DNA of 64,000 nt. It comes from Bacteroidales bacterium. GTDB taxonomy: Bacteria > Bacteroidota > Bacteroidia > Bacteroidales > CAIWKO01. The notes beneath the pieces were generated by a model. That model was not told the DNA's origin. It did not search any database and saw nothing but the letters and a program-made list of their open reading frames with translations. The translations under genes and the position numbers were made by a program. The stretch is from the NCBI GenBank assembly GCA_963678485.1, contig OY782882.1:4066339-4130338 (forward strand), in the 5' to 3' direction. How positions within the stretch are numbered: position 1 is the first letter of the stretch; each line of letters begins with the position of its first letter. This document shows, in pieces, positions 1,158-55,122 of the stretch.

Positions 1158-4100
1158 ATGAAAAACCTTAAAGGTTGCCTTAAGGCTGCCATTACCTTGT
1201 CCATTTGTATTTTTCTCTTGTTTGACGCCTCAGCTCAGGCACCACAAAGTTTCAACTATCAGGCGGTATGCCGCGATAATTTAGGAAATATTATAGCGAA
1301 TCAGTCTGTAACTCTTAGATTCAATATTTTGGATCTGGCCCCTGGTGGAACCTCGCTTTATCAAGAGACAGATGCTGTAACAACAAATTCTTATGGTTTG
1401 GTGAGTGTAGCAATTGGTGATGGAACCTGGGTTTCCGGTAATTTTCTAAGCATTCCCTGGGCAAGTGGTGAAAAGTATTTGCTCGTTGAATTGAACACTG
1501 GCTCAGGCTTTATAACAATGGGTGCCCCTCAATTATTAAGCGTTCCATATGCGATCTACGCGAATCAATCCGGAACAACTGGTTCTGCGGGACCAACCGG
1601 TCCACAGGGAATCACAGGTCCTACGGGAATTCAGGGCGTAACTGGTGTCACAGGTGTAGGATTAACGGGGGCTCAGGGAGTAACTGGACCAACGGGTGTT
1701 GGGTTAACCGGAGCACAAGGTATAACAGGACCCACGGGAGCGCAAGGTATCACGGGGCCAACCGGAATCGGGTTGACAGGTGCCCAGGGAATCACAGGTC
1801 CTACGGGACTTCAGGGCGTTACCGGTGTCACAGGTGTAGGATTAACGGGGGCTCAGGGAGTAACCGGACCAACGGGTGTTGGGTTAACAGGTGCTCAAGG
1901 TATAACAGGACCCACGGGAACGCAAGGTATCACGGGGCCAACCGGAATCGGGTTGACAGGTGCACAGGGAATCACAGGACCTACGGGGCTTCAGGGTGTA
2001 ACTGGTGTCACAGGTGTAGGATTAACGGGGGCTCAGGGAGTAACCGGACCAACGGGTGTCGGATTAGCCGGAGCGCAAGGTATAACAGGACCCACGGGCG
2101 CGCAAGGTATCACTGGGCCAACCGGAATCGGGTTGACTGGTGCTCAGGGAATCACAGGTCCTACGGGGCTTCAGGGTGTAACTGGTGTAGGATTAACGGG
2201 GGCTCAGGGCGTAACGGGACCAACGGGTGTTGGGTTAACAGGTGCACAAGGTATAACCGGACCCACGGGAGCGCAAGGTATTACGGGGCCAACGGGAATT
2301 GGGCTAACAGGCGCTCAGGGAATCACAGGTCCTACAGGACTTCAGGGTGTGACTGGTGTAGGATTAACCGGAGCGCAAGGTGCTACTGGTCCGACTGGGG
2401 CTGATGGTGCATTAAATGCATGGTCTCTTACTGGTAATACTGGTATGGTGGATGGGACAAATTTCATTGGAACCACAGATAACTCGCCATTCAATATCAG
2501 AGTAAATAATCAAAAAGCCGGCAGGGTTTCACAGACCAACGCCTCCTCATTTTTTGGCTTTGTTGCAGGAAACTCAACTACAGCCACAGGTTTAACAAAC
2601 ACGGCCATGGGGGATAGCACATTTTATACGAATTCCACTGGAGATGCCAATACGGCGATTGGTGCTAAGTCAATGCTGATGAGTGCTTCAGGAAGTTATA
2701 ATAGTGCGGTTGGATATAGCGCCATGTATTCAAGTGTGGCAACCACAGGAAATGCGGCATTTGGCGCCTATGCTTTATTACGAACAACAGGAAGTTACAA
2801 CACCGGAGTTGGATATACAGCACTTAGAAATAATACCTCAGGAACATATAATACCGCCATTGGTCTGGGAGCCCAATTCAACAATATTGCAGGAGGTTAT
2901 AATGCGGCAATTGGAGTGAATTCGCTGTATACTAATGATAGTGGATCTTATAATATTTGCATTGGGTATCGCACAATGTACTTAGTGCCTCAAGGTGATA
3001 ACAATATTGCGATTGGATCAAGAGCCCAATATAGTAGCGGAAGGATTAACAATATTATCGCTATTGGTGATTCCGCATTGTTTAGTAATAGGGCACTATA
3101 TAATACTGCATTAGGTTCAAAAGCCCTGAGTGCAAACACAACAGGAACTTCAAATACTGCAACTGGATTTCGGGCACTAGCCGGGAATACTACAGGGGCT
3201 GGAAATACTGCAAATGGCGCTCTGGCATTGTATAATAGTACCTCTGGATGGGGAAACACAGCGATGGGTAGTGGAGCCCAATTGATGAATAGTACAGGAT
3301 ATGCGAATACAGCATTAGGTTATAATGCTTTAGATGCGAATGAAGATGGAGACAATAATACTGCTGTTGGTTTTGGCGCATTAGGTAGTAACACTATTGA
3401 TGACAATACTGCAGTTGGAACATATGCTTTGTATGATAATACTTCTGGTTGGCGAAATGCAGCTCTTGGTAACAATGCCCTTTCAAATAATTCCAATGGT
3501 AGTTATAATGCGTCTTTCGGATCGAATTCATTATACAATAATAATGGAAGTTATAATGCAGCGTTGGGGGCATATGCGTTATATTCAAGTTTGGATGTTT
3601 CCGATAATGTTGCCTTAGGCTATAATACACTTTATTTTAATACTTCAGGAGATGCGAATGTTGCCATAGGGTCATTAGGCCTTTATAATAACAGAGGTGC
3701 AGGAAATGTGGCTGTTGGCAGGACTGCATTAATGGCCAATACAACTGGAAATTGTAATACAGCCATTGGTTGCGATGCGGACGTTTCAGCGGGAACATTT
3801 ACCAATGCCACTGCAATAGGGTATACGTCCACTGTTAATGCCTCTGATAAAATCAGACTTGGTGATGCAACAGTTACTGTCATTGAAGGTCAGGTAGCAT
3901 ATACATATCCAAGCGACGGGCGCTTTAAATTCAATGTAAAGGAAGAAGTAAAAGGATTGGATTTTATCCTGAAGCTTCGTCCTGTAGTCTATAATTTCGA
4001 TACCAAGAAGTTTGATAGTTTTCTGATGAAAAATATGTCGGACAGTTTGCGTAATGCACGAATGAAAGACCAGAACTACGATCGTTCCACTCAGGCTGTC

Positions 4101-7211: not shown

Positions 7212-7303
7212 GGAGAGGTGGGTGAGCGGCTGAAACCAACAGTTTGCTAAACTGTCATACTGGGTAACTGGTATCGGGGGTTCGAATCCCCCCCTCTCCG
7301 CCA
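7212..7303 (+). tRNA. tRNA-Ser (anticodon GCT) with a long variable arm and encoded CCA
   Basis: Acceptor stem GGAGAGG pairs with CCTCTCC. The anticodon loop is TTGCTAA. A long extra arm precedes the T-arm GGGGGTTCGAATCCCCC, and the gene ends GCCA. Confidence 0.85.
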
Positions 7304-8060
7304 ATCAATCAAAAGTCCCGCAACAGCGGGATTTTTTTTTACCCCCGAACGCGCAAACAACGTTTGCAAGCGTCCGGGGGTAAAAAAAAATCGCGAGTGC
7401 GCAGCACACGGGACTTTTGATTGATTGAAGCCCCCACGCCGGGATCACGGAGCAGCGTTCGGGGCGAATTATCACGAACACTGCTCCGTAATCCCCACTC
7501 AATATTGTTTTTTCAACAGACGCGCAAACAACGTTTGCAAGCGTCCGGGGGTAAAAAAAATTGATCAAGCCGGATTGTTGAGGAAAGGTTTGAAGGTAAT
7601 ATTTGCAGGACTTCTTATTGTTTATCTCTCTGATTTCGCATTTCGTTTCTCGGATCTCTGATCTGTTTTTCTCTTTTCACCCTTTTCTCTTACTTCTTTC
7701 AGGCGCACCTACCCGACTGCGTCATTCGGGCGGGCCTGCCCGAATGACATCGGTCAGGCGGGGATTTCCGATTTACGAATGACGCAATTAACGAACATTC
7801 TATAATCGAGATATGTGGAATCCATGATTTTGCTTCAGTATTTTGAAATCAGAGATCCGAGAAACGAAATTAGAAGTACGAGATAAACCAAAGGAAAAGC
7901 CCGTGCTCACCAACTTTTCGTCTTGATCCAAAAAAAATCGCGAGTGCGCAGCACACGGAACTTTTGATAGATTCTATGATGCATGTTTTGCTTTTCTTAT
8001 AAACTCACTCAGGTGGTTGTTCCGATTTATCCAAAATGCTGTACCTTTGCATATCTAATA
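7304..8060. repeat. Complex intergenic region of nested inverted and direct repeats
   Basis: There is an outer inverted repeat at 7304-7320 and 7409-7427. A 42-bp element is present twice, at 7347-7389 and 7519-7560. The element AAAAATCGCGAGTGCGCAGCACACGGnACTTTTGAT is present twice, at 7385-7420 and 7931-7975. There is an 11-bp-stem hairpin at 7721-7748. One forward copy (about 7614-7680) and one inverted copy (about 7843-7890) of the 46-bp family arrayed at 54.3 kb are present. Confidence 0.6.
7317..7340 (+). terminator. Intrinsic terminator after tRNA-Ser
   Basis: The hairpin CCCGC-aaca-GCGGG is followed by a T9 run. Confidence 0.55.
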
Positions 8061-20585: not shown

Positions 20586-22352
20586 ATGACATTTGAAGAA
20601 TTGGGAATTGCCCCCCATGTATTAAAGGCAATTCAGGAACTTGGCTTTGAAAATCCAATGCCGGTCCAGGAAGAAGTAATCCCATTAATGCTTAGCGGGA
20701 AAAGGGATATTATAGCTTTAGCGCAAACAGGAACTGGAAAGACCGCAGCCTTTGGACTTCCTTTGATTCAGGAAGCCAATCCGGAGGAACACAACCCACA
20801 GGCACTCGTATTATGTCCAACACGTGAGCTCTGTGTACAGATTACCAACGACCTTACAAATTACGCAAAATATTCAAAAAATATCCATATACAGTCGGTG
20901 TATGGCGGTGCCAGTATTTTAACACAAATGAATGCACTTAAAAAAGGAGTGCAGATTGTGGTAGCCACACCGGGTCGTATGATTGACCTGATTGAACGCA
21001 AGGCTGTAAAGCTTTCGAGCGTTACCCGCGTTGTGCTTGATGAGGCTGATGAAATGCTTAATATGGGATTTTTAGATAGCATCAATGCTATTCTTGCAAA
21101 AGTTCCCGATGGCCGCAATACCTTACTTTTCTCGGCAACTATGCCCGATGGTATTGTGAAGATCTCGCGTAATTATATGAAGAACCCACTGGAAGTAACG
21201 ATTGGGGTCAAAAATGCAGGAGCAGCAAATGTCCGTCATATCTGCTATACCGTTCATGCTAAAGATAAATATTTTGTATTGAAACGTATTGCTGATTATA
21301 ATCCCGGGATTTATGGTATTGTATTTTGCCGTACCCGTCGCGAGACACAGGAAATCGCCGATAAACTTATTCAGGATGGTTACAATGCTGATGCATTGCA
21401 TGGTGATCTTTCGCAAGGTCAGCGCGATAGCGTAATGGCGAAGGTTCGTACACGTAATGTAAAACTACTGGTAGCTACTGATGTTGCTGCCCGTGGATTG
21501 GATGTGGACGATCTTACGCACGTAATTAATTTCGGATTGCCTGATGATTACGAGATCTATACTCACCGTAGCGGACGTACCGGAAGGGCAGGAAAATTAG
21601 GAACCTCTGTGGTGATTGTGAATCTGAAAGAAAAAGGTGGTATTAAGCATATTGAAAAGATGATTAAAAAAACTTTTCAGCATGCTACAATTCCTACAGG
21701 ACAGGAGATTTGCGAAAAGCAATTGTTTCATCTGATTGATCGTATGGAGAAGGTTGAAACAGAGCAATCCGGTATTGAGACTTATCTTCCCGCGATTTAT
21801 AAAAAACTTGAATGGCTCGACAAAGAAGAAATAATCCGTCGTTTCCTCTCTTTGGAATTTAACCGTTTTCTTGATTATTACCGCGATGCACGTGATATCA
21901 AGGCTCCCGAAGAGTATAGCAGAAATAATCGTGATGACCGTGACGATCGCGAAGATCGTGGCGCACGGGGTGGTTATAAGGAACGTCCCGGCAGAGGTGA
22001 GTTCTCGCGTATGTTCATTAACCTTGGCCGCGTAGATGGCCTGAAACCAGGTGACCTTATCAGTATCATCAATTCATGTACACCGGGAATGAAAGTCGGT
22101 ATTGGCCGCATCGATCTGCAAAAGACCCATTCCTTTTTCGAAGTGGAGGCACGTTACATTAAGCAGGTTATAGCATTAATGAAGACTGCACGTTTCCGCG
22201 ATCGCAAGGTACAGGTTGGAATGGGTGATGGTCATCCCGGGAGCAATGCACCGGTAGAAACCACGCGTAAAGAACGAGCATTGGAGCCCACCCGCAAGGA
22301 ACGTGGTTTCCGCGAAGAACAGAAGTGGAAGAAGCGCAGTAAAAGTAAATAG
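20586..22352 (+). CDS. deaD: DEAD-box ATP-dependent RNA helicase (DeaD/CsdA-like) with a C-terminal DbpA-type RNA-binding domain and an RD/RG-rich linker
   Basis: The Q-motif, AQTGTGKT (motif I), DEAD, SAT and HRSGRTGR are present, followed by a C-terminal DbpA-like domain. Confidence 0.85.
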   Translation: MTFEELGIAPHVLKAIQELGFENPMPVQEEVIPLMLSGKRDIIALAQTGTGKTAAFGLPLIQEANPEEHNPQALVLCPTRELCVQITNDLTNYAKYSKNIHIQSVYGGASILTQMNALKKGVQIVVATPGRMIDLIERKAVKLSSVTRVVLDEADEMLNMGFLDSINAILAKVPDGRNTLLFSATMPDGIVKISRNYMKNPLEVTIGVKNAGAANVRHICYTVHAKDKYFVLKRIADYNPGIYGIVFCRTRRETQEIADKLIQDGYNADALHGDLSQGQRDSVMAKVRTRNVKLLVATDVAARGLDVDDLTHVINFGLPDDYEIYTHRSGRTGRAGKLGTSVVIVNLKEKGGIKHIEKMIKKTFQHATIPTGQEICEKQLFHLIDRMEKVETEQSGIETYLPAIYKKLEWLDKEEIIRRFLSLEFNRFLDYYRDARDIKAPEEYSRNNRDDRDDREDRGARGGYKERPGRGEFSRMFINLGRVDGLKPGDLISIINSCTPGMKVGIGRIDLQKTHSFFEVEARYIKQVIALMKTARFRDRKVQVGMGDGHPGSNAPVETTRKERALEPTRKERGFREEQKWKKRSKSK

Positions 22353-22353
22353 T

Positions 22354-22497
22354 GTCTGTCCATTAAATCCTTAGGCTGCATTGTCTTCTCGATGCTCGAC
22401 AGTCGATTATTTGAGCAAACGCCTGCCCGGCAATAATTCGGATGCTTTGCCTCCGGAACTTTGTGGTCAGCCACTTAGTTTGTAGACATCTCTAAAG
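22354..22497 (+). repeat. Structured ~145-bp element (copy A) immediately 3' of deaD, related to the element at 24208-24362
   Basis: It is about 70-75% identical to copy B. The termini are inverted (GTCTGTCCATTAAA ... TTTGTAGACAT). There is an internal CGACAGTCG...CTGCCCGG core. Confidence 0.5.
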
Positions 22498-22662
22498 AGT
22501 ACTTTTTGTTGATGCTTATTGATTAAGGATTTTTTTCTGATTCAATCATTTTCGCTACTACCAAGGCTTTCGCAATGTCAATGGTAATGATTCTATTCAA
22601 GTAATAGTAATTAGTATATGTTTATTTTGTAATTTGGCTGCACAAATTTTAACGGCTGAACT

Positions 22663-24162
22663 ATGAAAAAACTATTCTTACTTTGCTCTCTTTTTCTGCT
22701 TTTTTCCATTGGCCTGAAGGCCCAACCAATTCAGGGAGAAATTCTTGCTGACTCCGGAAACTTAAAAGTGGTGCGAGTTTGGGGCACACATTACGAGCGA
22801 GGTTATGCATACGGATATTTGTGTGAACCTAATATTATGGCAATATGGGAAGACTATATTGTTCCCAATTACTCTACAGTTCTGCCTTTTGCACGCATTT
22901 TAATAGGCAATCCGTCAAATTTTTCTATTGATTCGATTTACATTCGCGAGGCACAGGGCATACTTGACGGTTTGGGTGCTGCTGGTGCAGATACCGCTGG
23001 GTTAAGCTATCTGGATATTTTTGTTGTGAATTTTATGACCGACCTTGAAGGTTTCATGCCGAAGGCGGGCTTTATGACGCATCAGTGTTCGAGTATGATG
23101 AACTGGGGAACTTCCACACTCGCCTCTGATTTATCTGGAAAATCTGTGATAGCGCATCATTTGGATGCTGTTGGTTATGATTCGATTGTTGCGCATAATC
23201 AGGTAATGGTAGTGCACATTCCAAGTGAAGCGAATGAGCAGGCCTGGTTGTTAACCGGTATTGCTGGTCAAATGGTGGCTTCACAGGCAGTGAATGAAAG
23301 TGGTATTGCAGCATTTCTGAACACGGTAAATGGATTTTCTGCACAAACAGGACAGGGCTATGAGCCCATGACGATCACATTGCGTAAGAGTATTGAACGT
23401 CTGGATTACAATGGTGACGGGCTTCACAATACTAATGATGTACGTGCAGCCATTCAAAGCAATACGAAATATTCCCGCGGTTTTATTGTATGTGCATTAG
23501 CACCTTCAACATGCATTGAAGATACATTAATCTCTATGGTTGCAGAACTGGCTTCTGTTGCGCCTTTTATCACATTTCGTCATATAAATGATGTAGATTC
23601 TATTGTCGGCGATAATCTGTATGCCGCGAATGATATGATAAAGCGTAATAATGCACAGCAGTATTGTAGTCGGTACTTACAAGTGAAAGCAGCCATTAAT
23701 GGCGACTATGCAGGTGTAGGCATTGGTGCCCAGGATAATTGGGATATCATGCATGACCATTCCACACAGACCAGTAATCTACAATTCATACAAGTCATCC
23801 CTGAACTCAATAGATTTAGCATTTCTGTGAGCGACAATGCACAGCCGGGTTATCTATTTGCGCCGCAGGTTTTCGACATGCTGCAATTGTTTGATCACAC
23901 AGCAGGAATGCCACAAGTGGGGGAATCGAATTCAGCGATGCATCTATATCCTAATCCAGTTACCTCAAGTCTATCTGTTTCTATACCTGATCAACAAGGA
24001 AGAATGAAATGCTATTTGAGTGATATCGAAGGTCGTGTTTTGAATGTTGTTGATATTGATAATTATTCGACCATCGATGTAAGTGGACTTTCTTCGGGCT
24101 TGTATTTTCTGCACGTCAGTAGTTCCAATGGTTCCTTTAGCGGGAGGTTTGTGAAGGAATAA
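22663..24162 (+). CDS. Secreted hypothetical protein with a type IX secretion C-terminal sorting domain (possible Ntn-hydrolase-like fold, very tentative)
   Basis: There is a signal peptide. The C-terminal sorting domain is HLYPNPVTSSLSVS. An internal Cys (HQCSSMMNWG) might be an autoproteolytic nucleophile, but this is unverified. Confidence 0.4.
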   Translation: MKKLFLLCSLFLLFSIGLKAQPIQGEILADSGNLKVVRVWGTHYERGYAYGYLCEPNIMAIWEDYIVPNYSTVLPFARILIGNPSNFSIDSIYIREAQGILDGLGAAGADTAGLSYLDIFVVNFMTDLEGFMPKAGFMTHQCSSMMNWGTSTLASDLSGKSVIAHHLDAVGYDSIVAHNQVMVVHIPSEANEQAWLLTGIAGQMVASQAVNESGIAAFLNTVNGFSAQTGQGYEPMTITLRKSIERLDYNGDGLHNTNDVRAAIQSNTKYSRGFIVCALAPSTCIEDTLISMVAELASVAPFITFRHINDVDSIVGDNLYAANDMIKRNNAQQYCSRYLQVKAAINGDYAGVGIGAQDNWDIMHDHSTQTSNLQFIQVIPELNRFSISVSDNAQPGYLFAPQVFDMLQLFDHTAGMPQVGESNSAMHLYPNPVTSSLSVSIPDQQGRMKCYLSDIEGRVLNVVDIDNYSTIDVSGLSSGLYFLHVSSSNGSFSGRFVKE

Positions 24163-24207
24163 ATATTCTTCAACAAGCACAAACATTATTTAAATTATTA
24201 CAAACTA

Positions 24208-24362
24208 ATTAGTGCCTGTCCATAAAGTCCGTCTGCGGCGTTGTCCTCGTATTGTCGGGCAGTCGATTACGCCAGTAAACTCCTGCCCGCCAACACTTCG
24301 GACGCCTTGTCTCGCCTTAGGCGAGAGAGCTTTCTGATCAGTCACTGAGTTTATGGACGGAC
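24208..24362 (+). repeat. Structured ~150-bp element (copy B) immediately 3' of the gene at 22663-24162
   Basis: It is homologous to 22354-22497. The terminal inverted repeats are GTCCATAAAG and CTTTATGGAC. It also contains an internal palindrome CTCGCCTTAGGCGAGAG. Confidence 0.5.
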
Positions 24363-24363
24363 T

Positions 24364-25497
24364 CTAATTAATGTTTCGAACGGCCCAGCAGCGAAATTCG
24401 TAATTCGTTTCTTTGCCATCGAGGGTTTTGTTTTCGAAGTCAACCACGTTTTTGCCTGACTCAGCGCCGTTTCTGATAAATGGATCTCCGCACCAGTAGG
24501 CCTTAGGAAGCACATTGGAAAAACCATTTTCGTTGAGCCATTTGCATTCGTAGGGTGCATCTTTTATTTTTGAGATTTTCATCATTTCTTTTAATTCTTT
24601 CAAGGTTGGAAGACGCCAATCGGTATAACCTGCCAGTGAAAGCGAATCCGTATATGCCTTAGCGTTATCCCAGTACATGGCCTGATCAGGCGGGGTTTTC
24701 ATCCACATCAGTTTGGCTTTTCCATCAGTGACCGTACCATTGCCATTATCAGTAAAGCGTCCTGTGAAATCTTCATACGCATCTATCTCAACAATACCAA
24801 CTGCAAGCGGATCCGAATAGACATAACCTATACCGCCTGTAGAAATTCTGGGTTCCCAAATGTAAAGGTCAGCGTTCCATTTTTGTTCAATTTGTCCGCC
24901 GGGTACTGAATACTCATATGCAACGCGGAAGGTAATATAGAACTTATCGCCCGGAACGGCTGATTGCAAATCGCTTCCAATAAAAAATTTGAGATTTGAG
25001 CCTTCCGGCGACCAATCTAGGCCTGTTGTATTTCTTGATGCTACTGTTTCATCGTAGGATTGCATTAGCTCAGCGCATGGTGCTGCCCAAAGAGGAATAT
25101 CGGTTTTTGTTTTGGGCCATTTACTTGCATCTGTTGGCTGGCCGTTGATTTCAGGATGCCAGCACCAGATGGTCCAGACCATAAATTCGTTGGTTTTACT
25201 ATTTAAATTTTGAGGTCTTTCTTTCTCAAGTTTAGTAATAAAGCTGCCAACGGTAGTTCCCTGGGGGAGGATTGCCCTAAGATCCATTGTAGTTTCTTCT
25301 CCAACGGGAAACATGAATTTTCCGTTTTTATAATTGAATTGTGCCGCATCATATTTTACAAATTGAGGAAATCCATCAAATGATGGCAGAACGATGCCAT
25401 AGCCAAAGGTTTGAGTGTAAGCGGGGTCGAGCGATTGTGAAAATCCACTTTCGACCAACAAGGTCATTAAGATTAACGATACAATAATCTTTTTCAT
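24364..25497 (-). CDS. Secreted DUF1566 (Lcl C-terminal domain) protein
   Basis: There is a signal peptide. The C-terminal signature TDWRLPTLKELKEM is typical of DUF1566. Confidence 0.55.
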   Translation of the reverse strand: MKKIIVSLILMTLLVESGFSQSLDPAYTQTFGYGIVLPSFDGFPQFVKYDAAQFNYKNGKFMFPVGEETTMDLRAILPQGTTVGSFITKLEKERPQNLNSKTNEFMVWTIWCWHPEINGQPTDASKWPKTKTDIPLWAAPCAELMQSYDETVASRNTTGLDWSPEGSNLKFFIGSDLQSAVPGDKFYITFRVAYEYSVPGGQIEQKWNADLYIWEPRISTGGIGYVYSDPLAVGIVEIDAYEDFTGRFTDNGNGTVTDGKAKLMWMKTPPDQAMYWDNAKAYTDSLSLAGYTDWRLPTLKELKEMMKISKIKDAPYECKWLNENGFSNVLPKAYWCGDPFIRNGAESGKNVVDFENKTLDGKETNYEFRCWAVRNIN

Positions 25498-25800
25498 AAT
25501 CTTTAGTGTTAGGGATGATTGGTTTGATACACACTACAAAGGAACAACAATTCGGCAACACCAGCGCCTTAGATTCACCGGATTCTTACTAGTGAAACAC
25601 GGGTTTTGATGTTATGTGATTGGATTAATAAAATTCGGCTCAATGATTAAGTAGGCATATTTGAGAGATTGATATTATTTCGTTTTTCCATCATTGTTCG
25701 AAATTCAATACTTTTTTTCATACCTTTGCACCCCTAAAACTGTATTACGCGATTTGATGGGGTGTTTATAATCAAGTTATAGTAATACAACAATAGTTGA

Positions 25801-25874
25801 GGTTCCGTAGCTCAGTTGGATAGAGCAACAGCCTTCTAAGCTGTGGGTCGCGCGTTCGAATCGCGCCGGAATCA
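25801..25874 (+). tRNA. tRNA-Arg (anticodon TCT)
   Basis: The acceptor GGTTCCG pairs with CGGAATC, including one G-U pair. The anticodon loop is CTTCTAA. The T-arm is GCGCGTTCGAATCGCGC. Confidence 0.85.
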
Positions 25875-28204: not shown

Positions 28205-28260
28205 AAATACGAATATTAATATTGATGCATTATAGAATTTGAACCGATGTTGAAATGTGC

Positions 28261-28495
28261 GATGCCTGCGGCATCGGGATGGCGGTGCGGGTGTGATGGG
28301 AGCTACAAAGGTGGGATGCCTTCGGCATCCATTGATGCGGTGCGGTTGTGATGGGTGTTACAATGGGGGATGCCTTCGGCATCCTAGGGAGATGTGCAGT
28401 TTTGGGAGGCGTAGCATGGTTGCGATGCCTTCGGCATCTTTGGCGTGGTGCAGTTTTGAGAGATGTCAGATGGGTGAGATGCCTATGGCATCGGG
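28261..28495 (+). repeat. Array of 5 REP-like units (~56 bp each), each built around the hairpin GATGCC-TTCG-GGCATC
   Basis: Hairpins recur at about 28261, 28318, 28373, 28428 and 28477. The inter-hairpin segments are also mutually similar (GGTGCGGNTGTGATGGG, GTGCAGTTTTGRGAGG). Further GAAG and TTCG tetraloop hairpins lie at 28618-28636 and 28668-28691. Confidence 0.75.
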
Positions 28496-28702
28496 CGATT
28501 CGAGAATTGAATGTTGATGTTAATAACGACGCTTCTCGTACCTATGCTGGACTGTGTTTGTAAAACATTGATGATTGAAGAATCATAGGAAATGCTGAAA
28601 ATTCAATCCCAATGTGATTATCCCGAAGGGATAACACATTGGTGGAAAATGGCTGCAGTGTAGGTTGTGCGACCCCGAAGGGGTCGAACATTGTACAAAA
28701 AA

Positions 28703-29182
28703 TCAAATATCTAAATTTGAATATTCAATCCAATCAAATAGAAATCGATCTTCATAAGATATTTCAAATTTTTTCAAGAATCCTATGTATTCTGATTTAA
28801 AAGCGGTTTTACTATGATGTTCTTTTTGCCGCATAATATACTTGACTACTCTATCAATTTGTGATTGGCTATAAGTAAATGCCCCATATCCTTCTTGCCA
28901 GTAAAATTTCTGTTTGGTGAATTTTCCCTCGTTTATAAATGTGTTGCTTGATTTTTTTATTTCTCTCACCAAATCCGAAATCCGACATTCGGGTTTCATC
29001 CCAATAAAAATATGTATGTGGTCTGGCATACCATTTATTGCAAGCATTTTTTGACCATTTTTCTGAACGATGCCAGTGATGTATTTGTGCAATCGTTCTT
29101 CCCATGAAGGGAGGATCAGTGCATTTCGATGTTTTACAGCGAAAACCACCTGAACGTGGAGTTTTGAAAATGTTCCGGACAT
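28703..29182 (-). CDS. tnpA: IS200/IS605-family Y1 (HUH) transposase TnpA, possibly a REP-associated tyrosine transposase (RAYT)
   Basis: The ORF is 159 aa. The HUH motif is HIHIF. The upstream motif is HVQVVFAVKHR. There is a C-terminal Tyr region (QEGYGAFTYS). Hairpin repeats lie on both sides of the gene. Confidence 0.75.
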   Translation of the reverse strand: MSGTFSKLHVQVVFAVKHRNALILPSWEERLHKYITGIVQKNGQKMLAINGMPDHIHIFIGMKPECRISDLVREIKKSSNTFINEGKFTKQKFYWQEGYGAFTYSQSQIDRVVKYIMRQKEHHSKTAFKSEYIGFLKKFEISYEDRFLFDWIEYSNLDI

Positions 29183-29301
29183 AATTAGATTTATTTGTTT
29201 TGTTTCTGTAAAAATAAAAATAATTTAAATGAAAAATTGATTGTTTTTTTGTGATACCCCTTCGGGGTCGGATACAAATATTATTGTTTTTCATAATGTG
29301 C

Positions 29302-29580
29302 GATGCCGACGGCATCGGGATGGCGGTGCGGGTGGGATGGGAGCTACAAAGGGGGGATGCCTTCGGCATCCAGGGTAGCAGTGCAGTTTTGAGAGGCGTA
29401 ATAGGGTTGCGATGCCTTCGGCATCCATGCTGTGTTGCAGGTGTGATGGGTGTCACCTAGGGGGGATGCCTTCGGCATCCAACAGAGCAGTGCAATTTTG
29501 AAAGGCGTAGCATGGTTGTGATGCCTTCGGGGTCAATGGGCAGCAGTGCAAGTTGTGCGACCCCGAATGGGTCGAACACA
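29302..29580 (+). repeat. Second array of 5 REP-like hairpin units, paralogous to 28261-28495, ending in the hairpin GTGCGACCCCGAATGGGTCGAACA
   Basis: The first unit is nearly identical to the first unit of the left array. GATGCCTTCGGCATC recurs. The terminal hairpin at 29553-29577 is a direct repeat of the one at 28668-28691. Confidence 0.75.
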
Positions 29581-41841: not shown

Positions 41842-43617
41842 ATGATCGGAACCCAAATATTGAACTACCGCATCGAACGCCTTATTGGAGAAGGTGGCAT
41901 GGGGAACGTGTATCTGGGTGTGCATACACATATTGGGCGTAAGGTGGCCATCAAGGCGCTGAATCCCGGATTGGCCAAGAATCCTGAGATACGCGAGCGT
42001 TTTAAAAATGAAGCTTCCATGTTATCGCAGCTTCATCATCCGAACATCGTGCAATTGTACGATTATGTCGAGATGGAGCAAGGCGTTTTTTTGGTAATGG
42101 AATTCGCCGATGGTCAACCGCTGGATGAATATATTGAAAAGGTAACAGGTCCCATCCCTGAAGATAAGGCCTTACCAATGTTTGCAAAAATATTGGATGG
42201 TGTGGCCTATGCGCATAAAAAAAATGTGGTTCATCGGGATATTAAACCTTCCAATATTATTGTCAGCCCTGAAGGTAAGGTGAAGATTCTTGATTTTGGT
42301 ATTGCTAAAATTATCGGCGATAGTAATCATAAACTCACCAAAACAGGCACAAAGCTGGGCACTGTGCTCTATATGAGCCCGGAGCAAGTGAAAGGACAAA
42401 CACTTGATTTGCGAACCGACATCTATTCACTTGGAATTACGTTGTTTGAAATGCTAACGGGTAAATGTCCCTTCGATAGCAACAGCACAGAATACGAGGT
42501 TTACAAAAAAATTGTTGAAGAGCCAATGACCGACGCACGCACTCTGTATCCTGCTGTGAGTGCGCATTGCGCAAATGTTATCTTTAAGGCGACAAGCAAG
42601 GATGCCAATGATCGTTTTCAGGATTGTGCTGAATTTAAACAGTATTTACTGAACCCGCCAGTTGTTGCTGAAGCTACATCAACAAAGGACAAAAAGAAAA
42701 AACAGAAAGCTGCTGCAGTGTCCGCTGTTGGAGCAACGGCAACAGGAGTTTCAGCAAAGCGGCCACGGAAAAGGAATCTGTTGTTTTGGAATATTTTCAT
42801 GGCGTGTTTCCTTCTTACAGCATTGTGCATTACTACATACAAGCTTTTGTATGTAACTGAAGATCGTTACGTCATTGCATCCAAATTATATCTGAGAAGT
42901 TCAAAGAGCGTGGCAAGTAATGATAACGCAATCAAAGTAGTTGAATTCGGCGGACAGGTTCAAATTATTGATGAAGACAGTAATCCTGATGATGATGGAT
43001 TAACCTGGGCTAAAGTCCGCGATGCTTCGGGCAAAGAGGGATATGTTGCATTGAATTACCTTGGAACAAGAAAAGAATATGAGCAGATTCGTGGGATGTT
43101 TCTAGGCGAATCACAGGATCAAACTGTTGTTCAATATAAACTTGCTTTGCGCGATTACTTTGCTGAACAAGGATATTTCGATAGTGACCTTGATCCTAAA
43201 TGGAAGTTGAGTCCGGAAGGTGCTGGTTCAATCTACAATTGTTTTACTATAGGCGATTTTAATAATGACGGATTGGACGATTACGCTTGTGTAATCAGCA
43301 ATAAATATTACGAGGGCTGGCGATTGCTCGTTTTTGTAGCGAAAGGACATACTGAAACATCGCTTATTCTTGATGAAGAGATTTTTTATCAGGGATTAGT
43401 TTTAATTATGAAAAAGGGAGAGAAGATCAGCACTGGACGAACAAAGAACGTGATGGAATATGACGATGATGGTAATGTAGTGCAAACTTCAAAAAAAATC
43501 TATGAGTCGTTAGGCTCTGATGCATTAATATTGAAAGATAAATCCAATGGAAAGCGCCAGTTGTATGTGTTTAACCTGGGCGAAGGAAGCTTTAATCAAC
43601 CCATAGAAATGAAATGA
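41842..43617 (+). CDS. Hanks-type Ser/Thr protein kinase with a TM helix and extracytoplasmic SH3b-like and additional domains
   Basis: Kinase motifs are present: GEGGMGNVY, VAIK, HRDIKPSN, DFGIAK and SPE. The TM helix is LLFWNIFMACFLLTALCI. The SH3b-like region is VVEFGGQVQIIDE...GYVALNYL. Confidence 0.85.
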   Translation: MIGTQILNYRIERLIGEGGMGNVYLGVHTHIGRKVAIKALNPGLAKNPEIRERFKNEASMLSQLHHPNIVQLYDYVEMEQGVFLVMEFADGQPLDEYIEKVTGPIPEDKALPMFAKILDGVAYAHKKNVVHRDIKPSNIIVSPEGKVKILDFGIAKIIGDSNHKLTKTGTKLGTVLYMSPEQVKGQTLDLRTDIYSLGITLFEMLTGKCPFDSNSTEYEVYKKIVEEPMTDARTLYPAVSAHCANVIFKATSKDANDRFQDCAEFKQYLLNPPVVAEATSTKDKKKKQKAAAVSAVGATATGVSAKRPRKRNLLFWNIFMACFLLTALCITTYKLLYVTEDRYVIASKLYLRSSKSVASNDNAIKVVEFGGQVQIIDEDSNPDDDGLTWAKVRDASGKEGYVALNYLGTRKEYEQIRGMFLGESQDQTVVQYKLALRDYFAEQGYFDSDLDPKWKLSPEGAGSIYNCFTIGDFNNDGLDDYACVISNKYYEGWRLLVFVAKGHTETSLILDEEIFYQGLVLIMKKGEKISTGRTKNVMEYDDDGNVVQTSKKIYESLGSDALILKDKSNGKRQLYVFNLGEGSFNQPIEMK

Positions 43618-44909
43618 GAACACTCACAATAGGCAGGAGCAATTCGAATGATGTTGTTATCAAAGATACCTTTGTATCTGGATCGCATTGTTCGATAACG
43701 ATGGATGATAAAGGTGTGTTCTATTTGCAGGACCTCGGTTCAAGCAATGGCACATTTGTCAATGGAAAGCGCGTGCAGCAGGCATGGTTAAGAAGCAATG
43801 ATATTGTTAAGCTTGGTGAAACCGTAATTCCATGGCAGGAGTATTTTCAGGCCCCGAACGATAGTCATCTTAATGGAAATATAATCCGCAAGGTAACCAT
43901 GGGCCGTGCCCCAGATAACGAAATTGTTGTTGGTGATGATTTTGTTTCTTCGCATCATGCGGAGATTCTTATCACTGATCAAAATGAATATCTTGTTCAG
44001 GATTTAAATAGCACCAATGGTACTTTTGTTAATGACCGCAGAGTGATATCTTCTTTGCTGGTTCCCGGCGATCGTCTGCGACTTGCTCGTATTACGCTGG
44101 AATGGACCATGTTCTTCAGTGCACCTGCGTACAGTGAAACTCATACTGAAAAAAAATCCGCAAAGAGCTGGATTATTCCAACGCTGATTGCGCTAGGTGT
44201 TGTACTTGTTATAATCCTTGGCATCATGGGCATCATGAATATGAAAGGCAAGAGTACAAATGAAGAGGATCATTTGAATTCGAACGATACCACACTATCT
44301 GCCGGTAGTTTCAGTGATATGGTCAAAAGAGTTGAACAATCGGTTTTTTTGATTGAAAGCTATGATCGATACGGAAACAGCATGCAGGGTACGGGATTCT
44401 TTATTGCTGAAAATGGTATGGGTATCACCAATTATCATGTGGTTGAGGGTGGTACCAAATGGGTAATAAAGACAGTTGATGGCGCTTCCTATGAAGTCGA
44501 TGATTTTGTGGAACGGAACAAGAAATACGATTATGCCGTTTTCACGATTAATAATTCCGGCGATTATTTCAGGCCATTGCGCCGAAGCCTGAATACTCCA
44601 TCAAAAGGTGAGGAAATCTTCGTTATCGGAAATCCTCAGGGCATCGAAAGTACGGTCACCAAAGGTATTGTTTCAGGCCTGAAAGGCGGAACAGAAGACG
44701 ATATTATGAACGGAACATTCTCCGAAGGAAGTAATTTTGTTCAGATTGATGTTGCCATTTCCCATGGTAGCAGCGGTAGTCCGGTGCTAAATATGAAAGG
44801 TGAGGTGGTTGGAATTGCAACGCTCTCGTTTCAGGAATCCAATTGTATCAATTGTAACTTCGCTGTAAATATTCAATTGGTAAAACAGTATGTTGAGCCA
44901 AAACGATAG
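43614..44909 (+). CDS. Tandem-FHA, single-TM, trypsin-like (S1/HtrA-type) serine protease
   Basis: There are two FHA domains (GRSNSNDVVI...SGSH...NGTFVNG; GRAPDNEIVV...SSHH...NGTFVND). The TM helix is IIPTLIALGVVLVIILGIMGI. Protease residues are TNYHVV, DYAVF and the catalytic-Ser loop HGSSGSPV. The start overlaps the kinase stop (ATGA). Confidence 0.8.
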   Translation: MRTLTIGRSNSNDVVIKDTFVSGSHCSITMDDKGVFYLQDLGSSNGTFVNGKRVQQAWLRSNDIVKLGETVIPWQEYFQAPNDSHLNGNIIRKVTMGRAPDNEIVVGDDFVSSHHAEILITDQNEYLVQDLNSTNGTFVNDRRVISSLLVPGDRLRLARITLEWTMFFSAPAYSETHTEKKSAKSWIIPTLIALGVVLVIILGIMGIMNMKGKSTNEEDHLNSNDTTLSAGSFSDMVKRVEQSVFLIESYDRYGNSMQGTGFFIAENGMGITNYHVVEGGTKWVIKTVDGASYEVDDFVERNKKYDYAVFTINNSGDYFRPLRRSLNTPSKGEEIFVIGNPQGIESTVTKGIVSGLKGGTEDDIMNGTFSEGSNFVQIDVAISHGSSGSPVLNMKGEVVGIATLSFQESNCINCNFAVNIQLVKQYVEPKR

Positions 44910-45041
44910 CTGGAGAATTTGTAGATTGGTAAATTAGTTTTTACAGCACTTCTCACATTGAAAACCTTTTCAAATAACGTCTTGTTTCTTAGAGCAAAGG
45001 CCCTATAAGGGGTTATTGGGTTTACAAGTTAATTGGGTTTT
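44836..45041 (+). repeat. Left copy of the 206-211 bp target-site duplication flanking the IS
   Basis: It is identical to 46721-46926, possibly extended by 5 bp (TCAGG) on the left. It contains the last ~74 nt of the protease CDS plus 132 bp downstream. Confidence 0.85.
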
Positions 45042-46720
45042 CCTGACTTTGACACTTTAAAAATCACGAATTTGTAACTACCACAAATACATTCACATAT
45101 AAATTTTGCGCCACCCGTTTGGGTGACGCAAGAACAAAATGACTTATTTTAGCGTATGTTCATACGTAAAAAGAAAAATAGGTCAGGAACCACGAGTGTA
45201 GTCGTTGTAGATAAAACTCATGGGAAATATATCGAATTAAAAACAATTGGGGTAAGTAGTGATAGTTCCCAGATCGATAATCTGATAAAACAAGCAAAAC
45301 AATGGATAGATGCTCAATGTGGTATCCAAGATGTTTTTTGTATAAAAGCCAAGGAGCAAGAAGAAAAACAGGTAACTGAACACTTGTTGTCAAACATTGA
45401 AAACATCCTAATCAATGGCACGCAGTTGATTTTGGATAAGGTATTCCATCTTATTGGTTTCGATAAAATATATGATGACATATTGCGTCATTTGGTTGTT
45501 GCCCGTTTAAGCCAACCGATGAGCAAGTCGGCTACGGTAGATTATCTAAAATCATATTTTGATGAAGATGTGCAGCTATACAAGATATATCGTTATTTGG
45601 ACAAACTATACAATACCCAACAAGAGCGGATACAGCAAATCAGTGTTGAGCACACACGGAAGATATTGGGTGGTAAAATCGGCTTAATGTTTTATGATGT
45701 AACCACACTTTATTTTGAGTCTGATTATGGTGATGAACTAAGAGAAAATGGGTTTTCTAAAGACGGAAAGCACAGTCAGCCACAAGTAGTGCTGGGTTTA
45801 TTAGTAAGTAAAGGGGGCTATCCCCTTTCTTACTCTATTTTCAACGGCTCTCAATACGAGGGGCGAACGATGTTGCCCATAATTGACGATTTTGTTCGAC
45901 GTTTTAATTTGGATGACTTTGTAGTGGTTGCCGATTCGGGTTTGATGAGTAAATCAAACATATCATTGTTGGAATCCGGGGGGTACAAATACATTATCGG
46001 GGCAAGAATAAAAAACGAGACGGAAGAAATCAAGCAATGGATTTTATCTTTAGATAAATGCGATAATGAATTTCACGAACTAAAAAAGGAGAATACCCGG
46101 TTAATTGTAGGATATTCTTCAACCAGGGCAAAGAAAGACAAATACAATAGGGAAAAAGGCGTTAAACGCCTTCAGAAAGCCTATAAGAGTGGTAATATAA
46201 CGAAAGAAAATATCAACAAACGGGGTTATAATAAATTCTTGGAAATTTCGGATAATGTAAAAGTTTGCATTAATCAACATAAGATTGAAGAAGATGCTCA
46301 ATGGGACGGGCTAAAAGGATATATAACCAATACAACACTTTCGGCACAAGATGTTTATGAGCAATACAATGGCTTGTGGGTGGTCGAGAATGCTTTCAGG
46401 GTAACAAAAGGAACACTTGAAATGCGTCCGATGTTTCACTTTACACCACGCAGAATAGAAGCACATGTATGCATATGTTTTATAGCTTATAAGGTATATA
46501 AGGAGTTGGATCGGATACTAAAAACCAACAACATAAACCTGAGTGTAGATAAAGTACTTAGCATCGCCAAAACCATAACTACTGTCAAAGTCAGATTGCC
46601 ACTCAGCGATACTATCATGTCAAAGACAATGCTTGTCACGACAAGGCACAAATCTATTGCTATGCTATTTGATGAAAATTTCTGGAAAAATTTTTAGGGT
46701 GACGCATAGTCAAAGTCAGG
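45042..46720 (+). mobile_element. IS1634-family (IS4-related) insertion sequence with a 12-bp perfect terminal inverted repeat CCTGACTTTGAC and a very long target-site duplication
   Basis: The 12-bp inverted repeat lies at 45042-45053 and 46709-46720. It carries a single 513-aa transposase ORF. Flanking direct repeats of about 206-211 bp are present. Confidence 0.75.
45156..46697 (+). CDS. IS1634-family DDE transposase
   Basis: The ORF is 513 aa. The N-terminus MFIRKKKNRSGTTSVVVVDK and overall architecture are typical of IS1634-type transposases. An RNase-H-like DDE region is present. Confidence 0.7.
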   Translation: MFIRKKKNRSGTTSVVVVDKTHGKYIELKTIGVSSDSSQIDNLIKQAKQWIDAQCGIQDVFCIKAKEQEEKQVTEHLLSNIENILINGTQLILDKVFHLIGFDKIYDDILRHLVVARLSQPMSKSATVDYLKSYFDEDVQLYKIYRYLDKLYNTQQERIQQISVEHTRKILGGKIGLMFYDVTTLYFESDYGDELRENGFSKDGKHSQPQVVLGLLVSKGGYPLSYSIFNGSQYEGRTMLPIIDDFVRRFNLDDFVVVADSGLMSKSNISLLESGGYKYIIGARIKNETEEIKQWILSLDKCDNEFHELKKENTRLIVGYSSTRAKKDKYNREKGVKRLQKAYKSGNITKENINKRGYNKFLEISDNVKVCINQHKIEEDAQWDGLKGYITNTTLSAQDVYEQYNGLWVVENAFRVTKGTLEMRPMFHFTPRRIEAHVCICFIAYKVYKELDRILKTNNINLSVDKVLSIAKTITTVKVRLPLSDTIMSKTMLVTTRHKSIAMLFDENFWKNF

Positions 46721-46926
46721 AATCCAATTGTATCAATTGTAACTTCGCTGTAAATATTCAATTGGTAAAACAGTATGTTGAGCCAAAACGATAGCTGGAG
46801 AATTTGTAGATTGGTAAATTAGTTTTTACAGCACTTCTCACATTGAAAACCTTTTCAAATAACGTCTTGTTTCTTAGAGCAAAGGCCCTATAAGGGGTTA
46901 TTGGGTTTACAAGTTAATTGGGTTTT
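46721..46926 (+). repeat. Right copy of the IS target-site duplication
   Basis: It is identical to 44836-45041. Confidence 0.85.
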
Positions 46927-54296: not shown

Positions 54297-54325
54297 GGGC
54301 CGCCCGAGAGGGCGGCTCTTTTTTT
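54297..54325 (+). terminator. Intrinsic terminator after pepF
   Basis: The hairpin GCCGCCC-gaga-GGGCGGC is followed by a T7 run. Confidence 0.7.
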
Positions 54326-54960
54326 CTCTCTCATTTCGTATCTCTCTCCTCTGTTCTTTGATCTGTCTTTTCTCTCTCATTTCGTATTTCGCTATTCTGT
54401 TCTCTGATCTGTCCTTTCTCTCTCATTTCGTATCTCGCTACTCTGTTCTCTAATCTGTCCTTTCTCTCTCATTTCGTATCTCGCTACTCTGTTCTCTGAT
54501 CTGTCTTTTCTCTCTAATCTCGTATCTCGCTACTCTGTTCTCTGATCTGTCTTTTCTCTCTCATTTCGTATCTCGCTCCTCTGTTCTCTGATCTGTCTTT
54601 TCTCTCTCATTTCGTATCTCGCTACTCTGTTCTCTGATCTGTCTTTTCTCTCTCATTTCGTATCTCGCTATTCTGTTCTCTGATCTGTCCATTCTCTCTC
54701 ATTTCGTATTTCGCTAATCTGTTCTCTGATCTGTCCTTTCTCTCTAATCTCGTATTTCGCTACTCTGTTCTCTGATCTGTCCTTTCTCTCTCATCTCGTA
54801 TCTCGCTACTCTGTTCTCTGATCTGTCTTTTCTCTCTCATTTCGTATCTCGCTACTCTGTTCTCTGATCTGTCTTTTCTCTCTCATTTCGTATCTCGCTA
54901 CTCTGTTCTCTGATCTGTCTTTTCTCTCTCATTTCGTATCTCGCTATTCTGTTCTCTAAT
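54325..54960 (+). repeat. Tandem array (~14 copies) of a 46-bp pyrimidine-rich unit, TCTCTCTCATTTCGTATCTCGCTACTCTGTTCTCTGATCTGTCTTT
   Basis: The period is 46 bp with a few point variants. The array is capped by inverted partial copies at 54971-55010 and 55065-55105. Two further units (55540-55640) and an inverted copy (55644-55683) lie on the other side of the gene at 55123-55497. Confidence 0.85.
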
Positions 54961-55122
54961 CTAATTTTTAAATCAGAGAACAGAAAAACGAAATTAGAGA
55001 TACGAGATGTGCAAGGAAGAAAGGCAGAATAGGCTTTTATGTTTGTTGCCGTGATTAGGCTAATAAATCAGAGAACAGAGAAACGAAATTAGAGATACGA
55101 GATGTCCTGCAACGGAGTTTTT

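Follow-up and report, generated by a model that had tools for sequence, protein, structure and literature searches.

Several families of short intergenic repeats have been described in bacteria. Correia elements (CREE/NEMIS) of Neisseria are ~100-160 bp long, carry terminal inverted repeats, occupy intergenic regions in many copies and form a long hairpin; they often adjoin genes and are co-transcribed with them. ERIC sequences (IRU) of enterobacteria are imperfect palindromes of ~127-150 bp that occur across genera, in either orientation, within transcribed intergenic regions. Their fold appears to be preserved and, to our knowledge, no autonomous element matching them is known. Within the Bacteroidota, Porphyromonas gingivalis carries the MITEs BrickBuilt, 464/PgRS, MITE293 and MITE700, which are intergenic and species-specific, reach 10-20 copies per genome, contain minisatellites and irregular duplications, and have repeats that match resident insertion sequences, the IS5-family ISPg elements (PMC4596501).

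Here we describe two related elements, copies A and B, in a 64-kb window of a Bacteroidales genome, the window being the whole stretch of DNA that was analysed (Table 1). A reading made from the sequence alone had reported two related elements of ~150 bp on the + strand, and our analysis agrees: the copies are homologous and about 70-80% identical, depending on the method. A repeat finder paired 22342-22453 with 24202-24313 (72%, ungapped), MAFFT gave a mean column identity of 80% with one 11-nt insertion in copy B, and blastn gave 70% across 159 nt. The copies lie in the same orientation, 1860 bp apart, and the similarity ends at the element boundaries. The core pattern common to both, CAGTCGATTA-N7-AAAC-N-CCTGCCCG, has exactly two matches in the window and was seen in 0 of 100 shuffles. 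A search of the window with the covariance model of the wider family found no third full-length match; the remaining matches were weak, on the minus strand and within copies A and B themselves (E 0.3-0.4). Taking all the evidence below together, copies A and B are very probably copies of a non-autonomous transposon (MITE) that has spread in many Bacteroidota genomes.

Table 1. Parts of copies A and B and their positions in the window (TSD, target-site duplication).
Feature	Position	Strand	Basis
Copy A, covariance-model extent	22350-22494	+	93.5 bits, E 3.5e-17
Copy A, left TSD, TAAATA	22346-22351	+	read from sequence
Copy A, element proper, 141 bp, degenerate MITE copy	22352-22492	+	covariance model
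Copy A, transposase-distal-type end, GTGTCTGTCCATTAAAT	22352-22368	+	
Copy A, other end, decayed, TTTGTAGACATCTC	22479-22492	+	
Copy A, right TSD, decayed to TAAAGA (4 of 6 bases as in left TSD)	22493-22498	+	read from sequence
Copy B, covariance-model extent	24210-24366	+	113.4 bits, E 3e-21
Copy B, left TSD, TAATTA	24206-24211	+	read from sequence
Copy B, element proper, 153 bp, well-preserved MITE copy	24212-24364	+	covariance model and folding z
Copy B, inverted end, GTGCCTGTCCATAAAGTCC	24212-24230	+	
Copy B, inverted end, GAGTTTATGGACGGACTC	24347-24364	+	
Copy B, core hairpin (family-model helices 8 and 9)	24252-24293	+	MFE structure
Copy B, specific inserted hairpin, TCTCGCC-TTA-GGCGAGA (not in copy A)	24310-24326	+	alignments
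Copy B, subterminal block, AGCTTTCTGATCAGTCAC	24328-24345	+	alignment
Copy B, right TSD, TAATTA, identical to left	24365-24370	+	read from sequence

In copy B the two inverted ends, as read from the sequence, match each other at 14 of 18 positions; its 3' terminus is GTTTATGGAC and not, as originally given, CTTTATGGAC. The core hairpin consists of a variable stem, TTGTCGGGCAG / CTGCCCGCCAA, around a small conserved hairpin (ATTAC-GCCA-GTAAA) with conserved flanks. At the site of the hairpin specific to copy B, other members of the family have unrelated insertions in the alignment. The subterminal block is a degenerate, inverted second copy of the 5' terminal repeat; its family-wide conserved form is GAACTTTCTGAAYCAGACAC, and the family covariance model pairs it with the 5' end.

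Both copies are found at gene ends. The deaD reading frame ends at 22352 in the ORF list, and its stop codon TAG (22350-22352) is composed of the last two bases of the TSD and the first base (G) of copy A. Copy B starts 47 nt past the stop codon of a + strand gene for a secreted protein (22663-24162). The placement at gene ends proposed by the sequence-only reading holds, but the distance of 2-45 bp from a stop codon does not, since copy A overlaps the deaD stop and copy B begins 47 nt away. That reading also overlooked the far end of copy B, which contributes to the stop codon TAG of a convergent minus-strand gene at 24364-25497 (bases 24364-24366, CTA) encoding an Lcl_C domain.

Each copy is flanked by its own TSD, perfect for copy B and partly decayed for copy A. 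The perfect duplication and intact fold of copy B suggest that it inserted independently and fairly recently; copy A is probably older and decaying. Because of the separate duplications we rejected the idea that the gene between the copies had moved as part of a composite transposon. Relatives were compared as well. One of them (L003) is 99.96% identical to the window and therefore carries no independent information. In another (L004) an element starts at the same deaD stop codon, the only such case among the relatives compared. In three more (L001, L005 and L006), whose DeaD proteins are 78-83% identical, deaD is followed by a tRNA or short tandem repeats and no element, with flanks that cannot be aligned to the window. 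A conserved deaD 3'-UTR element was rejected because these three have other sequence there. An empty site for copy B was found neither in the metagenomes searched nor among the loci examined, so the case for mobility rests on the TSDs, the copy number and a matching insertion sequence.

Additional copies were abundant. At least 117 stretches from genomes of Bacteroidota contained a 21-nt pattern taken from the 5' end, and the covariance model (R1) gave 110 matches across 100 loci. These come from genomes of Bacteroidales, Flavobacteriales, Cytophagales and Chitinophagales; dozens of loci belong to the MAG binchicken_co228_355, several each to Marinilabilia salmonicolor, Cryomorpha and others, and for the source organism we counted the two copies within the 64-kb window. 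The productive probe was the 5' terminal repeat and not the core: the strict core pattern (CAGTCGATTA...AAAC.CCTGCCCG) had no match in the genome or metagenome collections because the core loop and stem are too variable between subfamilies. Neither search of plasmids and viral contigs gave a match to the family. Literature searches retrieved no published description of it, and it seems to have been undescribed so far, although a MITE as such is an ordinary kind of element.

Most members are 140-170 bp long. Their terminal inverted repeats span 17-20 bp; one terminus reads GTGTCTGTCCATAAAGT and the opposite one is the reverse complement of GAGTCTGTCTATAAAGT. They are flanked by a 6-bp TSD of the form TANNTA, whose sequence differs between copies. 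In 54 delimited copies both flanks carry TA, and 32 of these had identical flanking 6-mers; the middle two bases agreed in 32 of 38 copies compared with 11.3 expected, a value reached in 0 of 10,000 permutations.

A 1680-bp insertion sequence was found to share both ends and the 6-bp TSD with the MITE, and it contains a gene for a 450-aa DDE transposase. Its complete copies (L129-L131) terminate in GAGTCTGTCTTTAAACT and GTGTCTGTCCATACAGT and are flanked by TAATTA on each side. The 450-aa reading frame of one locus (L031) scored 351.3 bits against NF033593, the ISNCY family transposase model (cut-off 325), and also matched Pfam DDE_Tnp_1; IS5 and IS1182 models stayed far below their cut-offs with the partner transposase. 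From these model scores we assign the transposase to the NCBIfam 'ISNCY family' type, a distant relative of IS5 and IS1182. The 1680-bp element would fit the ISDol1 group that ISfinder lists within ISNCY, with lengths of 1.6-1.9 kb and 6-7-bp duplications. The same ends also break the contigs of one MAG at eight places. No ISNCY-type transposase is encoded in the 64-kb window, and among the loci examined MITE copies and the full-length element did not co-occur in one genome. Terminal-repeat pairs 0.8-1.3 kb apart at three loci (L112, L101 and L027) were considered as transposase carriers and proved to be separate elements around ordinary genes; another locus (L054) has a single lone end without a transposase.

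Thus the MITE reading accounts for the further copies, the TSDs and the autonomous insertion sequence that shares the MITE ends, and the MITE-like interpretation offered earlier is borne out. We infer that mobilisation occurs in trans by the ISNCY-type transposase. The MITE itself has no gene; its terminal inverted repeats, which differ slightly from each other, are those of the 1.68-kb insertion sequence. The transposase would bind these ends and insert the MITE at TA-rich hexamers (TANNTA), and a 6-bp staggered cut would duplicate the target hexamer on both flanks. Where the duplicated hexamer meets the G of the terminus, the sequence reads TAG, which explains why the elements adjoin stop codons; in the other frames, too, the termini contain stop codons. 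Insertions at or just past a stop codon therefore leave the protein unaltered and persist, and this accounts for the position of both window copies at gene ends.

The surroundings of the family as a whole are consistent with such a process. Of 84 adjacent gene ends, 19 use the TAG at the element terminus as stop codon and 11 use the TAA within the TSD, and gene ends are more frequent neighbours than gene starts within 300 nt (84 vs 60). None of 103 elements overlaps an ORF of at least 110 aa by more than 40 nt, indicating elements that lack coding capacity and are strictly intergenic. Placement relative to genes is therefore non-random, as had been suspected, and we attribute this to the choice of target site and the purging of disruptive insertions.

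Across the family, the core of ~100 nt shows strong compensatory change and the fold is unusually well kept. In the family alignment, 85.4% of cells were paired compared with 71.4% in shuffles, and 580 cells compared with 188 were changed on both sides, in counts that are inflated by the kinship of the aligned copies and by their fitting to the model; for both measures, 0 of 500 shuffles reached the observed value. Slid controls gave 26-43% pairing. A thinned set of 31 representatives (<80% identical) was 84% paired vs 66%, with double changes at 28 pairs vs 13.9. Every pair of model helices 8 and 9 had compensatory changes. The strand complementary to the TAGTG orientation folded better in 78 of 80 copies (z -6.4 vs -4.7). 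G-U vs A-C counts left the choice of strand ambiguous (252 vs 168 overall; 85 vs 162 without two fixed U-G columns). Unpaired motifs are conserved across orders in the alignment.

The window pair presents a different picture from the family. Copy B has folding z values of -4.4 (+ strand) and -5.6 (- strand), but those of copy A are about -1.1 on both strands, and copy A retains 26 of the 46 model pairs, with many non-canonical pairs marked in the covariance alignment. Hence the earlier statement that structure is retained applies to copy B and not to copy A, and the argument that divergence with kept structure reflects selection fails for these two copies and finds its support in the compensatory changes of the family. 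Copy A is probably the older of the two, yet about 20 of its 46 model pairs are gone; selection on the fold is thus not apparent at the deaD locus, which points away from a host function for it there.

We infer that the conserved fold serves the spread of the element and not the host; it might bring together both ends of a very short DNA. The strong covariation of the core and the consistently better-folding strand go beyond what a plain MITE model predicts. In addition, the covariance model matched the full-length insertion sequence at the terminal repeats only, the MITE core was not found in it, and by eye its transposase-distal end has no similarity to this core. Because only the terminal repeats are shared, the MITE is not a simple internal-deletion derivative. 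One could go further and propose a phylum-wide MITE that is not a passive deletion derivative, with a core selected as a single-stranded fold and termini built for harmless insertion at stop codons, a proposal that we regard as rather unlikely. On this proposal the core, absent from the parent insertion sequence, would owe its persistence in at least four orders to compensatory changes, the better-folding strand would match the transposase sense, and a DNA hairpin or cruciform would help the transposase to join the ends of a DNA shorter than the persistence length. Alternatively, the fold could act as an RNA made from the element.

The same observations raise the question of whether all or part of the element is a structured RNA under selection (a 3'-UTR stabiliser, a processing site or a small RNA), with the transposon-like ends as a secondary feature. 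The compensatory changes, which persist after thinning, the preferred strand and the conserved unpaired motifs would all suit such an RNA. However, the orientation of the elements is unbiased with respect to flanking transcription, with 42 genes reading into the forward strand and 42 into the reverse strand, and copies are frequently back to back. The inflation of the pair counts and the loss of pairs in copy A weigh against it as well, and template switching at quasi-palindromes could produce matched changes without selection. Rfam 15 gave no match over the window elements, at the gathering score or at E up to 10, nor did Rfam match in 18 loci containing the best family copies. We consider a selected RNA improbable, and the 3'-UTR RNA structure suggested by the sequence-only reading is unsupported.

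That reading had also offered a terminator family, which would here mean intrinsic transcription terminators located downstream of genes. Both window copies do follow + strand genes, copy B lies between convergent genes, and there is the excess of gene ends over gene starts. Nevertheless, a simple scan found no G+C-rich hairpin followed by a T-run within either copy on either strand, and the alignment shows TTCGC or CTCC, not a T tract, after the conserved hairpins. Moreover, 60 neighbours within 300 nt are gene starts, seven element-bearing intergenic regions lie between divergent genes, and terminators are not characterised by TSDs or inverted ends. Terminators are thus a very improbable explanation.

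We give equally little credence to REP/REPIN-type palindromic repeats moved by a Y1 (IS200-like) transposase. Such a transposase is encoded in the window at 28703-29182 (Pfam Y1_Tnp, E 1e-27) and is flanked by repeat arrays, and the elements are intergenic and form hairpins. The repeats around the Y1 gene differ in sequence, however (GGATGCCTTCGGCATCC hairpins), and the family model has no match near this gene. REPINs and IS200/IS605 elements are not known to duplicate their target, whereas the MITE family has a 6-bp TSD, and a DDE insertion sequence with exactly the MITE ends exists. We also rejected an integron attC site, a candidate because a gene precedes each copy: the ends are GTGYCTGTCC / GGACRGACTC and not the core sites RYYYAAC / GTTRRRY, and the elements occur in both orientations and also after housekeeping genes such as deaD. 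Local duplication or chance resemblance, for which one could cite that the window contains no more than two copies, in the same orientation and separated by 1860 bp, can be dismissed, given more than 100 homologous copies in unrelated genomes, similarity confined to the element with its own TSD at each copy, and an expectation of zero for the shared core pattern.

For annotation of the window, the MITE reading means that both elements are transposon relics and not regulatory RNAs, and that element ends fall within the stop codons of deaD and the Lcl_C-domain gene. More broadly, the ISNCY-type DDE partner, the TANNTA target and the covariance model should allow hundreds of intergenic repeats of Bacteroidota to be masked or annotated, and the family helps to account for breaks in MAG contigs. 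With its well-conserved, covarying core, the family is well suited to asking why a fold is retained in certain bacterial MITEs, such as ERIC and Correia elements.

Like the Correia elements, the MITE family is small, has terminal inverted repeats and is intergenic and multicopy. Correia elements, however, have a TA-only duplication and unrelated 26-bp repeats and are found in Neisseria only, whereas the MITE family has a 6-bp duplication and extends over several orders of Bacteroidota. ERIC sequences are unrelated to it, and the MITE family, in contrast to ERIC, has a matching autonomous element. A 'novel widespread MITE' of Cardinium was rejected as the same family since it is an IS982-derived, strain-specific element. 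The P. gingivalis elements are, like those described here, intergenic MITEs of Bacteroidota, with terminal repeats (GAGACCTTTGCA and others) unrelated to GTGTCTGTCCATAAAG of the MITE family. Besides MITEs derived from insertion sequences in general, the closest known systems are the ISNCY insertion sequences with a DDE transposase (NF033593), which share both terminal repeats, including the GTG vs GAG difference, and the same 6-bp TANNTA duplication, and which differ from the MITE in possessing the transposase gene.

Copies A and B, the first degenerate and the second well preserved, are MITEs (small non-autonomous transposons) of an ISNCY-type insertion sequence. That the two are homologous, as the sequence-only reading had claimed, was borne out by a repeat finder (72% identity, ungapped), by MAFFT (80% column identity, with a single 11-nt insertion, in B), and by a core pattern common to both that has just two occurrences in the window and none in 100 shuffles. 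The same reading held that they had diverged with their structure kept. This is true of copy B, which folds far better than shuffled sequence (z -4.4 and -5.6 on its two strands), but not of copy A (z about -1.1), in which about 20 of 46 pairs are gone and the duplication is partly lost. Over both copies Rfam gave no match at gathering score, nor at E up to 10, and a simple scan placed no terminator-like sites.

Features of the window, in window positions
Feature	Position	Strand	Remarks
Collagen-like coding repeats	1605-2403		180-nt period, 4.2 copies, 89% identity, 9-nt GGN-type units
Two small repeat pairs	7331-7389 / 7502-7560 and 7383-7426 / 7930-7973		just after tRNA 7212-7300
Single units related to minisatellite	7622-7670 / 7845-7887		47 kb away from it
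Gene before copy A	20586-22352		DEAD-box helicase (deaD), DbpA domain
Copy A duplication	22346-22351, 22493-22498		TAAATA, TAAAGA; not identical
Copy A	22350-22494	+	homologous to copy B
Gene before copy B	22663-24162		type IX secretion sorting domain
Copy B duplication	24206-24211, 24365-24370		TAATTA, identical
Copy B	24210-24366	+	homologous to copy A
Convergent gene whose end copy B abuts	24364-25497	-	Lcl_C domain
Repeat arrays on both sides of Y1 ORF	28253-28492 and 29356-29550		~54-nt repeats, GGATGCCTTCGGCATCC hairpin in each
Y1 transposase ORF, IS200-like	28703-29182	-	Pfam Y1_Tnp, E 1e-27
Perfect direct repeat, 211 nt	44831-45041 and 46716-46926		1885 bp apart
46-bp minisatellite	54322-54962		13.9 copies, 94% identity
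Short second array of minisatellite	55542-55636		600 bp downstream of first array

Strict patterns from the shared A/B core had zero matches in public collections. The 5' terminal 21-mer TAGTGNCTGTCCATNAANTCC matched genome contigs in at least 117 stretches, which supplied the further copies that the earlier reading had proposed collecting. Among the matches listed, the hosts include Bacteroidales (many MAGs, Marinilabilia salmonicolor, Anaerophaga, Geofilum, Salinivirgaceae), Flavobacteriales (Cryomorpha ignava, Cryomorphaceae), Cytophagales (Cyclobacteriaceae, Roseivirgaceae, Chryseolinea) and Saprospiraceae; dozens of loci come from a single MAG, and none was found in viral contigs and plasmids. 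The terminal repeat is also present on two contigs binned outside Bacteroidota, L019 (a MAG labelled Clostridia) and L125 (a MAG labelled Thermodesulfovibrionia), where the element interior differs from the canonical core; mis-binning or a rare transfer could account for them.

A typical copy of 140-170 bp starts GTGTCTGTCCATAAAGTCC. Next come two variable stems with the motif GCGTTAC between them, the first short and the second longer and enclosing a small hairpin (YCATTTAC-NNNN-GTAAACTCC); these are followed by the motif CTTCGCAAGCCTTG, a subterminal block GAACTTTCTGAAYCAGACAC that repeats the 5' end in inverted and degenerate form, and the 3' end ...TTTATAGACAGACTC. The two ends are inverted repeats with a consistent difference, GTG...TCC versus GAG...TCT. 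Deletion derivatives of 41-57 bp and copies bearing extra inserted hairpins also occur, and copies often adjoin each other with the flanking hexamer in common. The target-site duplications that the earlier reading had suggested looking for are present and 6 bp long: identical 6-mers of the form TANNTA flank 32 of the 54 delimited copies that have TA on each side, and the two central bases match in 32 of 38 copies, where 11.3 would be expected (0 of 10,000 permutations as high). One copy has a 7-bp duplication. Because each window copy has its own duplication, the gene between A and B was not brought in as a composite.

The partner was met in one MAG, in which a MITE-type 5' end runs at eight places into unrelated sequence, with the contig ending about 135 nt on; at the opposite contig ends lie the other terminal repeat and an ORF start, MKLFNDL.... 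A complete ORF of 450 aa at locus L031 scores 351 bits to NCBIfam NF033593 'ISNCY family transposase' (cut-off 325) and also matches Pfam DDE_Tnp_1; its homologues number more than 2,900, and most are on contigs of 1.6-2 kb. The insertion sequence is present complete in L129-L131, where it measures 1680 bp, starts GAGTCTGTCTTTAAACT 97 nt ahead of the ATG, finishes ...GGGACTGTATGGACAGACAC, and has TAATTA on both sides. The MITE therefore has both ends of the partner and makes the same duplication, its forward orientation (TAGTG first) being antisense to the transposase gene. The family covariance model matches the full-length partner at the terminal repeats only, and by eye the sequence adjoining the transposase-distal end has no likeness to the MITE core. 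No ISNCY-type transposase was found within the 64-kb window. Five loci from different metagenomes with full-length copies of the insertion sequence (L131, L132, L134-L136) have one right flank (TAATTAACAAAACTACGCTTCC..., then an Lcl_C-domain gene) with three different left flanks, which suggests recombination between insertion sequence copies, or chimeric assemblies.

Overlaps of more than 40 nt with an ORF of at least 110 aa were seen in 0 of 103 elements. Their neighbours are 84 gene ends versus 60 gene starts, and element-bearing regions lie between convergent genes 14 times and between divergent genes 7 times, against an even background (60 versus 63). There is no bias of orientation: the strand that flanking genes would transcribe is the forward one 42 times and the reverse one 42 times. 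In 19 cases the neighbour's stop is a TAG made of the last two duplication bases and the terminal G, and in 11 it is a TAA at the start of the duplication; as read from the sequence, the consensus ends also hold TAG and TAA in the remaining two frames. That the elements adjoin stop codons is explained by their target, TANNTA(G), and by the purging of insertions that were disruptive. At both window copies a neighbour's stop is a TAG made of duplication bases and the terminal G (deaD, 22350-22352; Lcl_C-domain gene, 24364-24366). In the reconstructed pre-insertion sites both genes already ended at these TAGs; both proteins were unaltered by the insertions.

The nearest named relatives of the window DeaD are from Bacteroidales MAGs. 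Locus L003, from an ENA assembly, is effectively from the same organism, since it is 99.96% identical to the window. At L004, with deaD 79% identical at the DNA level, the beginning of an element is at exactly the same place (...AAA TAG TGACTGTCCATAAAGTCCGTCTGC), and the contig stops there; the insertion of copy A may predate the split from this lineage. Three further relatives (DeaD 78-83% identical in protein) are without an element after deaD, which shows that it is not a conserved part of the deaD transcript; in two of them the next feature is the tRNA found at 25801 in the window. In L006 this tRNA (window 25801-25874) is within about 110 nt of deaD, and in L001 within about 280 nt. The window gap (22353-25800, about 3.4 kb) holds copy A, the secreted-protein gene, copy B and the Lcl_C-domain gene, and all of this may have been gained in one lineage only.

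The family model, built from 15 diverse copies, gave 110 matches, and the covariation that had been proposed as a check was found at family level. In an alignment fitted to the model, of related copies and with a few rows that are opposite-strand matches of the same element, standard pairs fill 85.4% of cells versus 71.4% with shuffled partners, and 580 cells are changed on both sides versus 188 (0 of 500 shuffles as high in either case); helices 4, 8 and 9 have both-side changes in every pair. Sliding the partners lowers pairing to 26-43%. After thinning to 31 representatives (<80% identical), 84% versus 66% is paired, and 28 versus 13.9 pairs have double changes. As these compensatory changes show, the lineage that goes on transposing has kept the fold. 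The lost pairs of copy A, its part-lost duplication and its possible age, before the L004 split, speak against the fold being selected for at this host locus; we therefore infer that the fold serves the element's own propagation. It is possible that mutational correction of quasi-palindromes keeps the fold, and possible too that it has an RNA role. The reverse strand is better folded in 78 of 80 copies (mean -58.3 versus -46.7 kcal/mol; z -6.4 versus -4.7), about 5 kcal of the gap being base composition, and counts of G-U versus A-C pairs on the family alignment did not distinguish the strand.

The window holds other repeats. The Y1 ORF scores 76 bits to the NCBIfam IS200 model and only 32 to the REP-associated model; with its flanking arrays (28253-29550), whose sequence is unrelated to the MITE, it resembles a REPtron in layout. 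The 211-nt repeat brackets an ORF of 513 aa (45156-46697), its first unit overlapping the end of ORF 43614-44909. One of the small repeat pairs is a long palindrome, ACCCCCGAACGCGCAAACAACGTTTGCAAGCGTCCGGGGGT, with A/T runs at its flanks. The deaD relatives likewise have short tandem repeats between genes, such as 8-mers (TAGTGCCT in L005, GGTCACCC in L006) that directly follow deaD or a neighbouring gene, and in L006 genes close to deaD encode Pfam Collagen and PTL_trimer domains.

No published account of this MITE family was found in the literature searched. The MITEs of P. gingivalis (BrickBuilt, 464/PgRS, MITE293, MITE700; PMC4596501) and the IS982-derived MITE of Cardinium (PMC9769881) have different ends and are species-specific. 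A bulk survey tallied 81,380 unique MITEs in Bacteroidota, individual families not being characterised in the passages concerned (bioRxiv 10.1101/2024.01.18.576219). The feature is real, its kind is ordinary, and the family is a new instance of that kind; its interest is modest and rests on the conserved core and the stop-codon targeting. Its nearest functional analogues are the Correia elements of Neisseria and the ERIC repeats of enterobacteria.
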